Part shown: piece after piece, positions 10,992-39,058 of the stretch | Layout: every line of letters begins with the position of its first letter | Position numbering within the stretch: the stretch's first letter is position 1 | Sequence record: PP541515.1 | Strand: one strand, 5' to 3' | DNA length: 44,592 nt | From: Escherichia phage PSK8 | Notes under the pieces: model-generated | Database searches by the model: none | What the model was told of the DNA's origin: nothing | The model's input: only the letters and a program-made list of their open reading frames with translations | Position numbers and translations under genes: made by a program

Positions 10992-11009
10992 TGTCTCACA
11001 TGTGAGACA
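10992..11009. promoter_or_regulatory. Perfect palindrome TGTCTCACATGTGAGACA (copy A), followed by T-rich tract; hairpin terminator or processing site
   Basis: Perfect 18-bp palindrome with flanking complementary bases; one of six copies. Confidence 0.5.
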
Positions 11010-11039
11010 GGTCTTTATGATAGGCACTATGGAGGAACT

Positions 11040-14000
11040 ATGGAACAAGATATTAAAACTAATTGGGCTGGTTATGTCCAGTCCACTCCTGAGCCGTTTT
11101 CTATTGAGGCGGCTCCGGTATCGGCTCCTACGATACGCCAGCGTAACGAGTTACAAGAGCAGGTTCTTGAAGCTAAAGCAGACGCTGATATCTTAGGTGC
11201 TGTGGGTGCGGCCTTCCAGAACGAGTGGCTGGCGTTCGGAGGTAAGCGGTGGTATGACCGCGCCACCGCAGATTTCACACCTCAACCTGATTTTGAAATC
11301 CAGCCAGATAGACGTGAAGCACTTCGCTTCAAATATGGTACGGATATGATGCAGAAAATCACAGAGGGTGTTCGCTCTGAGGATGAATTAAACTTCCGTA
11401 TTCAGAATGCAGATGAAGACCTTGAGCGTAATAAACGTATTGCTCAGGCAGGTTGGGCTGGGTCTGTGGCAACGATTGGCGCCGCTGTGCTTGACCCGGT
11501 GGGCTGGGTCGCCTCTATCCCAACTGGCGGTGCAGCTAAGGTGGGGCTTGTAGGGCGTGCTGTCCGTGGTGCCATTACTGCTGGTGTGAGTAATGCCGCT
11601 ATTGAGTCAGTATTAGTACAAGGCGACATGACCCGTGATTTAGATGACATTATGGTAGCACTAGGCTCCGGTATGGCGATGGGTGGTGTTATTGGCGCTG
11701 TGGCACGTGGTAGGGCTACTAAACTTAGCGAGCAAGGCGACGATACGGCTGCTAGTGTTGTGCGAAGTGCAGACGCTGGGGACCGCTATGTACGTGCCGT
11801 TGCCGATGACAGTATTGGTGCAATGCGTGTTAAGGGAGAAGAGGTGCTCACTGAGGGTGCATTTGATGTATCCAGTAAAGGTGAAGACTTGTTAAAAACA
11901 TTGCAGCGAGAAGGTAATGAGATTGATATGACACCGCGCCGATGGGCAGGAACTATGTCTGCCCTTGGTACTGTCGTACACTCCTCGCAGGATGCTAGTG
12001 TACGTGGCCTAGGTGCTCGCCTATTTGAATCACCACAGGGCTTAGGTATGCAGAAAGCATCTGCTAGTCTAATGCAGAATACCAACTTGAACCGTTTAAA
12101 GTCTGCTGATATGAACCGTTTTAATGATGGCTTTGACTTATGGCTCAAAGAGAATAACATCAATCCGGTTGCAGGTCACACTAACTCTCATTATGTGCAG
12201 CAATACAACGAGAAAGTGTGGGAGGCGGTGCGTATTGGTATGGATGAGTCTACACCTAAATCTATCCGCATGGCTGCTGAGGGGCAACAGACTATGTACA
12301 GAGAAGCACTGGCTTTACGTCAACGCTCTGGTGAAGCTGGCTTTGAAAAGGTCAAGGCTGACAACAAGTATATGCCTGATATCTTTGATAGTATGAAAGC
12401 CAGACGCCAATTCGATATGCACGACAAAGAAGACATCATTGAGCTGTTCTCTCGTGCCTACCAGAATGGTGCTCGTAAGATTCCAAAGGAAGCAGCAGAT
12501 GAGATCGCACGAGCACAGGTGAATCGTGTTGCTGATGCCACATTAACTGGACGACTTAGTTTTGAAAGGGCAATGTCCGGTCAGACTAAGGCAGAGTATG
12601 AAGCTATTATGCGTAAGGCTGGCTTTAGTGATGAAGAGATTGAAAAGATGGTAGAAGCTCTGGATAACAAAGAAACCAGAGACAATATCTCTAACCGAGC
12701 TAAGATGAGCCTAGGGTTAGATGTTACTCAAGAATACAATGGCATTCGTATGCGTGACTTCATGAATACCAACGTAGAGGAGTTAACTGATAACTACATG
12801 AAGGAGGCAGCAGGTGGTGCTGCATTGGCTCGCCAAGGATTCTCTACCTATCAGGCAGCACTTAATGCAATTGACCTTGTTGAGCGAAATGCACGAAATT
12901 CTGCTAAAGACAGCAAAGCTAGCTTGGCCTTAGATGAAGAGATTCGTCAAATGCGAGAAGGTCTTCGCCTGATTATGGGTAAATCTATTGATGCAGACCC
13001 GCAAGCTCTGTCTACTAAGATGATGCGCCGTGGTCGTGACATTACAGGCGTACTTCGCTTAGGTCAGATGGGCTTCGCACAGCTAGGTGAACTTGCTAAC
13101 TTTATGGGTGAGTTTGGTATTGCTGCAACCACTGTAGCTTTAGGTAAGCAATTCCGTTTCACCTCTAAGGCACTACGCAGTGGCGATGGCTTCTTCCGAG
13201 ATAAGAACCTTGCAGAAGTAGAGCGGATGGTTGGTTATATTGGGGAGGACAACTGGCTAACAACCAAGGGTGCACGTCCAGATGAGTTCGGTGATGTAAC
13301 AACAGTGCGCGGTATGATGGCCCACTTTGACCAATCCATGAACTCAATTCGTCGCGCTCAGACAAACCTGTCCCTCTTCCGCATGGCTCAGGGTTCTCTG
13401 GAGCGAATGACTAATAGGCAAATAGCCTTATCCTTCATTGACCACCTTGAAGGTAAGAAGGTTATCCCTCAGAAGAAACTGGAGGAACTTGGTCTTACTC
13501 AGGAGTTCATGACTAGCCTACAGAAGCACTATGATGCTAACTCTAAAGGCTCAGGGTTGCTTGGCTTTGATACAATGCCTTATGCCATGGGTGAAACTTT
13601 AGCTAATGCTATTCGTCGTAAGTCAGGTCTAATCATTCAACGTAACTTCATTGGTGATGAAGGTATCTGGATGAACAAAGCACTAGGCAAGACCTTTGCA
13701 CAGCTTAAGTCATTCTCCCTTGTATCTGGTGAGAAGCAATTTGGCCGAGGTATTCGCCACGATAAGATTGGCCTAGCTAAGAAGACAGCCTTTGGCTTTG
13801 CTTTGGGTTCGATGGTGTATGCAGCGAAAGCCTATGTGAACTCTATTGGACGAGAAGACCAAGAGGAATATCTGGAAGAGAAGCTATCGCCTAAAGGGTT
13901 AGCCTTTGGTGCGATGGGTGTGATGAGTACAACTGCTGTATTTAGTCTAGGTGGAGACTTCTTAGGTGGCCTAGGCGTTCTGCCTTCCGAACTTATTCAA

Positions 14001-14225
14001 TCACGTTATGAAGCAGGCTTCCAAAGTAAAGGTCTGATTGACCAAATACCTCTGGTTGGCGTTGGTGCAGATGCAGTAAATCTGGCTACCTCAATCAAGA
14101 AGTATGCAGAAGGTGACACAGAAGGTGTAGATATCGCTAGGCGAGCACTTCGTCTTGTGCCACTGACTAATGTAATAGGTGTCCAAAACGCATTGCGTTA
14201 TGGCTTAGATGAACTGGAGGATTGA
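11040..14225 (+). CDS. Internal virion (core/ejection) protein, gp16-like
   Basis: 1061 aa ORF following the other internal proteins; GGAGGA RBS. Confidence 0.75.
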   Translation: MEQDIKTNWAGYVQSTPEPFSIEAAPVSAPTIRQRNELQEQVLEAKADADILGAVGAAFQNEWLAFGGKRWYDRATADFTPQPDFEIQPDRREALRFKYGTDMMQKITEGVRSEDELNFRIQNADEDLERNKRIAQAGWAGSVATIGAAVLDPVGWVASIPTGGAAKVGLVGRAVRGAITAGVSNAAIESVLVQGDMTRDLDDIMVALGSGMAMGGVIGAVARGRATKLSEQGDDTAASVVRSADAGDRYVRAVADDSIGAMRVKGEEVLTEGAFDVSSKGEDLLKTLQREGNEIDMTPRRWAGTMSALGTVVHSSQDASVRGLGARLFESPQGLGMQKASASLMQNTNLNRLKSADMNRFNDGFDLWLKENNINPVAGHTNSHYVQQYNEKVWEAVRIGMDESTPKSIRMAAEGQQTMYREALALRQRSGEAGFEKVKADNKYMPDIFDSMKARRQFDMHDKEDIIELFSRAYQNGARKIPKEAADEIARAQVNRVADATLTGRLSFERAMSGQTKAEYEAIMRKAGFSDEEIEKMVEALDNKETRDNISNRAKMSLGLDVTQEYNGIRMRDFMNTNVEELTDNYMKEAAGGAALARQGFSTYQAALNAIDLVERNARNSAKDSKASLALDEEIRQMREGLRLIMGKSIDADPQALSTKMMRRGRDITGVLRLGQMGFAQLGELANFMGEFGIAATTVALGKQFRFTSKALRSGDGFFRDKNLAEVERMVGYIGEDNWLTTKGARPDEFGDVTTVRGMMAHFDQSMNSIRRAQTNLSLFRMAQGSLERMTNRQIALSFIDHLEGKKVIPQKKLEELGLTQEFMTSLQKHYDANSKGSGLLGFDTMPYAMGETLANAIRRKSGLIIQRNFIGDEGIWMNKALGKTFAQLKSFSLVSGEKQFGRGIRHDKIGLAKKTAFGFALGSMVYAAKAYVNSIGREDQEEYLEEKLSPKGLAFGAMGVMSTTAVFSLGGDFLGGLGVLPSELIQSRYEAGFQSKGLIDQIPLVGVGADAVNLATSIKKYAEGDTEGVDIARRALRLVPLTNVIGVQNALRYGLDELED

Positions 14226-38813: not shown

Positions 38814-38822
38814 GGAGGTCTG

Positions 38823-39041
38823 ATGAAAGTACAAATCGTAACCCTGCACTGTAAGAATGGCATTACCACGCTCGGCGGTAATACTTTTCACTCCTTCTCC
38901 GAAGGGGAAGTTTACGCTGACCTGCACTACATCTGGCGCGACGGACAGCACGTGGTGAACTACAGCGACCCTGCGACAGGTAAACGCCACGGCGTGTCTC
39001 TTCCGGCACATGACATCGCGCAGGTGAACACAGTTTTATAA
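38823..39041 (+). CDS. Hypothetical protein (72 aa)
   Basis: AAGGAGG RBS. Confidence 0.55.
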   Translation: MKVQIVTLHCKNGITTLGGNTFHSFSEGEVYADLHYIWRDGQHVVNYSDPATGKRHGVSLPAHDIAQVNTVL

Positions 39042-39042
39042 A

Positions 39043-39058
39043 GTCTCACATGTGAGAC
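39043..39058. promoter_or_regulatory. Palindrome GTCTCACATGTGAGAC (copy F) upstream of promoter
   Basis: Perfect 16-bp palindrome. Confidence 0.5.

Follow-up and report, generated by a model that had tools for sequence, protein, structure and literature searches.

The window analysed here is the whole 44,592-nucleotide stretch recorded for Escherichia phage PSK8 (PP541515.1), a circularly permuted genome of a K1E/K1-5-like Vectrevirus (Autographiviridae, Molineuxvirinae) that shares ~90% identity with many K1E/K1-5-like phages. Bases 1-127 are identical to 44466-44592, a terminal overlap of the permuted assembly, and since they are repeated at the window end the true genome length is 44,465 bp. 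All genes of the window lie on the + strand, the biological left end of the genome falls near position ~24,100, and there are 12 phage promoters. Dispersed through this genome is a 16-nucleotide palindrome, GTCTCACATGTGAGAC, with six perfect copies starting at 10993, 29857, 30050, 32418, 33816 and 39043 (here named A to F in that order). Dinucleotide shuffles contain on average 0.03 matches and the observed count was reached in none of 100, bearing out the claim of the first-pass annotation, which was made from the letters of the DNA, that the repeat is not a chance occurrence. Extended by its T/A flanks to 18 nucleotides, the palindrome is matched without error at A, D and E and with a single mismatch at B, C and F; A and D are part of an identical 24-mer, GGCTTGTCTCACATGTGAGACAGG, as had also been noticed. 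Beyond the six perfect copies there are two degenerate ones that the first-pass annotation had missed, GTCTCACGTGTTAGAC at 30850-30865 and GTCTCACGTTAGAC at 24488-24501. The second subject of this analysis is the phage protein gp6, a candidate reader of the palindrome.

Copy A (10992-11009, on the + strand like all the others) lies between two large internal virion protein genes, at the apex of an RNase III-like hairpin (10973-11034). Copy B (29857-29872) stands 40 nucleotides past a terminator-like hairpin that follows the RNA polymerase gene and precedes the phage promoter 29875-29896, copy C (30050-30065) precedes the promoter 30071-30092, and copy F (39043-39058), which starts 1 nucleotide past the gp17 stop codon, precedes the promoter 39074-39095. 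Measured to the -17 edge of each promoter, these distances are 2, 5 and 15 bp, so that the earlier placing of B, C and F directly upstream of phage promoters holds; only these three of the 12 phage promoters have a palindrome 2-15 bp upstream. The coding copy (30850-30865) is found inside the primase/helicase open reading frame, where G TCT CAC GTG TTA GAC encodes S H V L D. Copy D (32417-32434) follows that gene at the apex of a two-tier hairpin (~32398-32454), and copy E (33815-33832) occupies the apex of another (~33796-33852) upstream of gp12 and the DNA polymerase gene. The left-end copy (24488-24501) is decayed, with its 2-nucleotide centre deleted, and is located ~65 nucleotides upstream of an early sigma-70-like promoter at 24568. 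Overall, 7 of the ~8 sites lie in the early/middle third of the genome, and the general form of the site is GTC-Y-M-AC, a purine-pyrimidine centre, and GT-K-R-GAC, with 7-bp arms and a 2-bp centre. Isolated half-sites were also considered as functional elements, but no enrichment of them was found and the idea was rejected. A primase recognition site was set aside, as the T7 primase recognises GTC and the SP6 primase reportedly GCA.

Several other elements adjoin these copies. A perfect CRP-type palindrome, TGTGAcaggtaTCACA (24523-24538), lies 21 nucleotides 3' of the left-end copy and just upstream of the sigma-70-like promoter at 24568, and is also kept in K1E and S16a-like phages. Copies B and C flank a ~150-bp non-coding stretch (29897-30049) between two promoters after the RNA polymerase gene, purine- and AT-rich with AAAGG/ATAGGT-like repeat units, at the position of the T7 primary replication origin; its equivalent in Proteus phage PM85 has ~8 TAGGTA-like repeats. 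A second hairpin (39064-39087), GGTGTCCGG....CTGGACACT, stands between copy F and its promoter, and the promoter's -12 to -4 specificity region forms its 3' arm. In a relative with another promoter type (L019, GTGTTGCAC), the upstream arm of the corresponding hairpin is altered to GTGCAGCAC and complementarity is preserved.

The palindrome is a real repeat family, deeply conserved across a large branch of T7-like phages, with 5-9 copies in each genome across the Molineuxvirinae and Colwellvirinae. Positional conservation in relatives of SP6 and K1-5, which the first-pass annotation had proposed as a check, was examined, and all positions are kept in K1E, K1-5 and, as a sequence variant, SP6; orthologous left-end 16-mers are present in these three phages and others. 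The variant, GTC(C/T)AAC-RY-GTTGGAC, occupies the same positions in the SP6, Klebsiella-phage and Pectobacterium-phage lineages, and the K1E-type palindrome is retained in Erwinia phages. In PM85 the site is GTCCAAC-A(C/G)T-GTTGGAC with a centre of 3 nucleotides, and its apparent lack of the palindrome in a phylogenetic profile was therefore misleading. K1E arms with a 3-nucleotide centre are also found, in 4-10 copies, in the Colwellvirinae (Vibrio phage Vp670, Pseudomonas phage uligo and Aeromonas phage MJG, which share 43-44% RNA polymerase identity with the window), and several metagenomic relatives (~40% RNA polymerase identity) carry multiple copies of the exact K1E 16-mer. Across 177 distinct copies the outer GTC/GAC and the inner AC/GT are nearly invariant and arm base pairs 4 and 5 are limited to a few states, while the 2-nucleotide centre is purine-pyrimidine in 163 of 163 distinct copies. 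The left-end copies hold GTC..AC..GT..GAC despite broken arm pairing. Nine genomes bearing gp6 have 5-9 sites each, and neither the site nor gp6 was found in T7 and 24 distant loci (265 kb). The same 16-mer also occurs in three high-GC contigs (L253, L256 and L063) that have no genes in common with the window; these are probably chance matches or unrelated families. A literature search did not find the exact 16-mer, although the primary genome papers (Dobbins 2004, Scholl 2004), which fell outside the search, may mention the repeat. Nothing relevant was found in the literature on SP6/K1-5 hairpins, RNase III sites, transcriptomes and ParB-like phage proteins.

A family of terminators or pause sites was one of the readings first offered. 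The copies would then stop or stall the RNA polymerase of the phage or the host as class I terminators (hairpin plus U-run) or pause sites, insulating promoters from upstream read-through. Promoters do directly follow B, C and F, and B and C look weakly terminator-like in a simple scan, where their GAGAC is followed by UUAUUU or UUCGUAUUU. However, B and C are the only copies to pass this lenient search for a hairpin and a U-run, with the weakest scores, and A, D, E and F fail it; the G+C-rich hairpin directly followed by a U-run that characterises class I terminators was not found at the palindrome copies. The T-rich tract after A, D and E, read at first as a U-tail, turned out to be a CUUUAUGA-type segment that forms part of an internal loop and lower stem. 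Terminator-like hairpins of unrelated sequence are present nearby, one at 29792-29815, 40 nucleotides before copy B and much stronger than it, and another at 39521-39548. In SP6, ACGAUGCGG, AGAACUU and AAAUCUG come after the orthologues of B, C and F, respectively, and more generally the orthologous copies in SP6, Klebsiella phages and distant relatives run into non-U-rich sequence, a Shine-Dalgarno sequence or a separate ordinary terminator. In the distant relatives the palindrome lies just 3' of a stop codon, and a Shine-Dalgarno sequence, a promoter or a separate ordinary terminator comes next. Moreover, two copies lie in coding sequence, essential genes contain copies, and the experimentally used SP6 t5 terminator lacks the motif. 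Judged from these sequences the palindrome is not the terminator, and a role of its copies in termination or pausing is very improbable. In Rfam the whole window gave no hit at gathering thresholds, and 29700-34000 gave no meaningful one at E <= 10. Two other kinds of transcription signal were seen elsewhere in the window: the T7 class II pause/termination signal ATCTGTT in the terminal-repeat region (24163-24169), resembling the T7 concatemer-junction signal, and two boxA-like sequences, (C/T)GCTCTTTAACAA, in the early region (24903 and 25532).

Copies A, D and E fold into a 13-14 bp upper stem tipped by the palindrome, a small asymmetric internal loop and a 9-11 bp lower stem, with folding free energies (dG) of -29.9 for A (z -3.4), -29.8 for D (z -4.25) and -29.3 for E (z -2.9). 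Across 18 relatives the E hairpin shows compensatory changes in 10 of 24 pairs together with several invariant G.U pairs, which are possible only on the + strand and thus point to selection on the plus-strand RNA at this copy; the D hairpin behaves similarly, its consensus structure being kept in 15 relatives. In the extended class formed by the hairpin copies, none of 41 core pairs is mismatched. The same architecture is found in the RNase III sites of T7, which have the flank consensus AGUGnUAUACUCAAGG...CCUUUAUGAUUAnCAUU. Seven of these sites, with positions following Dunn & Studier (1983), were used to build a covariance model, which matches A with 33.5 bits (E 3e-5) and orthologues of A with 38-48 bits; D and E gave no match to it at E <= 10. 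The model also matches two palindrome-free hairpins, at 36707-36758 (50.9 bits) and 25570-25621 (27.4 bits), and in Erwinia phage Tapenade the A orthologue has an ordinary upper stem without the palindrome. As hairpins of the RNase III type thus exist without it, the palindrome is a separable module grafted onto them. The hairpin at 36707-36758 lies right after the DNA polymerase gene, with an upper stem that nearly matches the one in T7 R1.1, the hairpin at 25570-25621 lies upstream of the ocr gene, as does T7 R0.3, and a weak further RNase III-like hairpin, also palindrome-free, is seen at 21942-21992.

From their folds and alignments, A, D and E are probably the tips of RNase III-type processing hairpins. 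The stems of B, C, F, the left-end copy and the coding copy comprise only 6-7 bp, whereas E. coli RNase III requires ~11 bp between the distal box and the cleavage site (PMC1540722), and these copies are therefore too short for the enzyme. The suggestion of RNase processing hairpins made in the first-pass annotation consequently stands for A, D and E, with their upper stem, internal loop and lower stem, and falls for the remaining copies. A broader version would have all copies act as RNA, as plus-strand stem-loops for RNase processing or mRNA-end protection, their sequence being shared by descent or through a hairpin-specific RNA-binding factor. The two-tier hairpins, the compensatory changes and G.U pairs of E, the unbroken core pairs and the scores of A and its orthologues against the T7 model (33-48 bits) all speak for this version, and many copies in distant relatives sit between a stop codon and a Shine-Dalgarno sequence. 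The RNase III sites of T7, too, are said to adjoin promoters. However, the stand-alone copies are short of the length that RNase III needs, and the palindrome is dispensable in the hairpins themselves, as the two palindrome-free examples in the window and that of Tapenade show. A role in structure alone also leaves unexplained the identical arms in phages of 40% protein identity, the broken pairing of the left-end copies, and both the asymmetric sites of Pantoea phage Nufs112 and the co-variation with gp6 described below. It is unlikely that all copies act as RNA.

The copies in coding DNA give the clearest view of the core as a sequence. In the primase/helicase copy the non-allelic third-codon positions are invariant in 4 of 4 cases, against 1 of 37 in the flanks (25 distinct sequences; p 5e-5), and the residue encoded at the site is His with CAC-type arms and Asn with AAC-type arms. 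The coding copy of the window has two mismatches because a perfect K1E-type copy in that frame creates a TGA stop codon. Some lineages also have a copy in the RNA polymerase gene, within a variable loop; the Vp670 motif occurs at the same place of this gene in a different reading frame, encoding VSRCET instead of VSNVLD. There is accordingly nucleotide-level selection on the palindrome in coding DNA, a clear case of a DNA signal that overrides protein-coding sequence.

Only two unannotated early/middle proteins, gp16 and gp6, are conserved throughout the palindrome-bearing clade. The first (38007-38813, 268 amino acids), also conserved in distant relatives, has an acidic C-terminal tail, ..PEMDEDAEY; this tail ending in Tyr gives it the look of a single-strand-binding protein of the T7 gp2.5 type, and it was rejected as the reader. 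The second, gp6 (26209-27093, + strand, 294 amino acids), is conserved in >200 sequenced phages and is predicted to start with an N-terminal helix-turn-helix (HTH) domain of the ParB/KorB fold, from which a Pro/Glu/Ala-rich linker and a coiled coil lead to a conserved C-terminal domain. For residues 1-128 an AlphaFold2 model (pLDDT 77) has complexes of the SopB DNA-binding domain (DBD) with DNA as its top Foldseek matches, consistent with a DNA-binding fold of the ParB family. The protein starts directly with this DBD-like domain and has no N-terminal ParB/Srx CTPase domain, so it is no canonical ParB or KorB. K1E, SP6 and K1-5 have no annotated ParA-type ATPase or KorA-type co-repressor, though their small open reading frames were not all profiled. 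Searches of PDB sequences with gp6, gp10, gp16, gp18 and a gp6 profile gave no match, and only 5 proteins were recovered when diverse homologues of gp6 were sought with a profile. A C-terminal J-domain in gp6 (without the HPD motif) was also considered; it proved unsupported, the model of the C-terminal domain being of low confidence and its fold search yielding coiled-coil noise. In Klebsiella phage KL01 a variant site, TTGTCTCCTGTAGTAGACA, lies at 11093-11111 inside its own gp6-like gene, which hints at autoregulation.

The sequence of the site co-varies with that of gp6. Residue 66 of the protein sits in the segment KKAQCY[K/N]LM, the second helix of the putative HTH, and is Lys in 21 of 21 genomes with C:G at base pair 5 of the arm, and Asn, or His in SP6, in 18 of 18 with A:T. 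Since Vectrevirus is nested among Asn lineages in a neighbour-joining tree of the RNA polymerase, in which Vibrio phage BD5 stands apart, at least three co-transitions are implied. This rule was tested prospectively on genomes picked solely for having a gp6 homologue: Aeromonas phage MJG combines Lys66 with GTCTCAC arms, as the rule predicts, and phage BD5, whose gp6 is 28% identical, combines Asn66 with eight GTCTAAC-GY-GTTAGAC sites. In Klebsiella phage KL01 and Pantoea phage Nufs112 the helix is altered to KKAWAFKLM and the inner arms are altered too, to GTCTC(C/T)T-AT-A(A/G)GAGAC; in Nufs112 the sites lack symmetry, are found in both orientations and cannot fold into good hairpins. A further correspondence concerns the genomes with a 3-bp centre (PM85-like phages and Colwellvirinae), in which gp6 position 72, at the end of the putative recognition helix, is L or E rather than R, K or Q and position 114 is N or T instead of D. 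This association of positions 72-73 and 114 (26422-26427 and 26548-26550) with centre length involves ~two independent lineages and may be due to chance.

Several points count against gp6 as the reader of a DNA site. The protein has no Pfam, NCBIfam or PDB sequence match, its model was built on a shallow alignment with moderate fold scores, and the placement of residue 66 in a recognition helix relies on the helix pattern only. The co-variation amounts to ~three evolutionary events, and overall ~1% of the columns of gp6 segregate, much as in the RNA polymerase. Specificity is not absolute, as one K1-5 copy has the other allele, and the 3-bp centres of PM85 and the Colwellvirinae demand a reader that tolerates or adapts to a changed spacing of the half-sites. 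Finally, the flanks of A, D and E pair with many G.U pairs, and plus-strand RNA selection is certain there.

The exceptional K1-5 copy bears on another explanation, in which the palindrome has no reader and is a selfish repeat or one driven by recombination; gene conversion would homogenise it, or it would serve as a crossover linker of mosaic genomes. The K1-5 E site (L004, 9570-9585) is the SP6-type allele GTCCAACGTGTTGGAC in Vectrevirus-like flanks, and all other copies in that genome are K1E-type; compared with the near-identical flanks of L017 (16647) there are four coordinated changes in 16 nucleotides against ~2 in 84 flanking nucleotides, which suggests mosaic exchange or conversion at the palindrome. 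Alleles and centre length (2 or 3 bp) are uniform inside nearly every genome, as homogenisation would have it, and the hybrid arms of the left-end copies resemble crossovers inside the palindrome. However, the coding copies arise through point substitution and not insertion, efficient conversion would call for more than 16 bp and the copies have unrelated flanks, their positions are kept from one subfamily to another, and the purine-pyrimidine centre and the co-variation with gp6 are left unexplained. A repeat without a reader is accordingly highly improbable.

The palindrome might alternatively be the binding site of a conserved host protein, since it is a palindromic 16-mer near early host promoters and a CRP-like site adjoins the left-end copy. 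Against this, phages of Escherichia, Erwinia, Vibrio, Pseudomonas and Aeromonas have identical arms, whereas close enterobacterial phages differ in allele, and the allele follows the residue of the phage protein and not the host. To our knowledge no host site matches the palindrome, and this explanation is highly improbable.

Taken together, the palindrome is probably an operator-like site in double-stranded DNA that is bound by a dimer of gp6, with A, D and E serving in addition as the tips of RNase III hairpins. Besides the co-variation and the prospective test, this reading is favoured by the site layout shared with sopC, the joint presence or absence of sites and gp6, the selection on coding copies, the left-end and Nufs112 sites that pair poorly, the uniform centre length within genomes and the lack of enrichment of single half-sites. 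The idea of a binding site for a dimeric protein, one of several in the first-pass annotation, is hence retained for the conserved core, with gp6 as the candidate on account of co-variation and fold, and is disfavoured in its host-protein form. Physical binding of gp6 to the sites is what the co-variation of the sequences would imply. A gp6 dimer would occupy ~eight dispersed 16-bp sites, which adjoin early host promoters, precede three middle promoters and occur in the primase/helicase gene and in three intergenic hairpins. Because a palindromic DNA site doubles as an RNA stem-loop, A, D and E could be built into the tips of RNase III-type hairpins, where constraints at both the DNA and the RNA level would act. 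By analogy with KorB, whose operators lie 4-10 bp upstream of the promoters that they repress (PMC11790492), gp6 binding would modulate the adjacent early and middle promoters as a shut-off or switch. Alternatively, gp6 may act at the presumptive origin, which B and C flank, or its binding may organise origin-proximal DNA.

In the wider form of this proposal, gp6, with a DBD of the ParB/KorB type and no CTPase, and its ~eight operators would constitute an unrecognised regulatory or organising layer in SP6/K1E-like and Colwellvirinae phages that governs the early-middle-late switch or the origin, under a selection that dictates amino acids of the RNA polymerase and primase and has grafted the site onto RNase III hairpins. 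So extended, the proposal is tentative, its prospects being slightly less than even. SP6 and its relatives are classic phages of the T7 supergroup and the source of SP6 RNA polymerase, K1E- and K1-5-type phages are candidates for therapy, and yet half of the early genes in SP6 and its relatives have no known function. If gp6 does read these sites, a function would be assigned to a gene conserved in >200 sequenced phages, a KorB-like global operator network would exist in a strictly lytic phage, and Lys66 with C:G against Asn66 with A:T would constitute a simple swappable pair of protein-DNA specificity. For annotation, the palindrome hairpins should not be labelled as terminators, and probable RNase III sites have been identified for this phage group.

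Parts of this arrangement resemble known systems. Copies A, D and E are built like the RNase III sites R0.3, R0.5, R1.1, R4.7 and R18.5 of T7, with an internal loop separating the upper from the lower stem, and site A has the flank consensus ACUCAAGG...CCUUUAUGA in common with them. However, the upper stems of T7 sites are 9-10 bp long and lack the palindrome, by which those of A, D and E reach 13-14 bp, and five other copies of the palindrome have no RNase III scaffold. The PeSL cassettes of T4-type phages are likewise short repeated modules of stem-loop and promoter in intergenic regions, at mosaic boundaries. In contrast to the palindrome, whose positions are conserved across subfamilies, these are host-promoter cassettes of hyperplastic regions without a known dedicated binding protein, and their stem-loop follows the promoter, whereas the palindrome stem-loop precedes it.

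Further parallels are offered by DNA-binding systems, in which, as in the 8 copies of the window, an inverted repeat of 13-16 bp occurs in several copies per replicon (ParB, KorB and SopB types). Chromosomal ParB-parS and Noc-NBS have 16-bp palindromes in several copies around the origin domain, often inside genes, and changes in a few residues of the recognition helix or its vicinity alter their specificity; there is a resemblance between the half-site TGTTTCAC and TGTCTCAC. However, parS half-sites abut without a 2-bp centre, and ParB and Noc have CTPase domains and spread or slide on DNA. With SopB/sopC of plasmid F the palindrome shares a 16-bp inverted repeat of 7-bp arms and a 2-bp purine-pyrimidine centre; the sopC site, TGGGACC-AC-GGTCCCA, is a 7+2+7 inverted repeat in which such a centre is required (PMC3177203). 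Unlike sopC, with its tandem 43-bp repeats at one locus and its role in partition with the SopA ATPase, the phage sites are dispersed, some of them in coding DNA, and the K1E and SP6 records annotate no ParA-type ATPase. KorB of the IncP plasmid RK2 has an operator (OB) unrelated in sequence (TTTAGCSGCTAAA against GTCTCAC-RY-GTGAGAC), and gp6 differs from it in lacking the ParB/Srx CTPase N-domain, which makes a CTP-dependent sliding clamp unlikely, in having no known KorA-like partner, and in belonging to a strictly lytic T7-like phage transcribed by a single-subunit RNA polymerase. In the placing of its sites, however, KorB offers a parallel, since B, C and F lie 2-15 bp upstream of phage promoters much as KorB operators lie 4-10 bp upstream of theirs.

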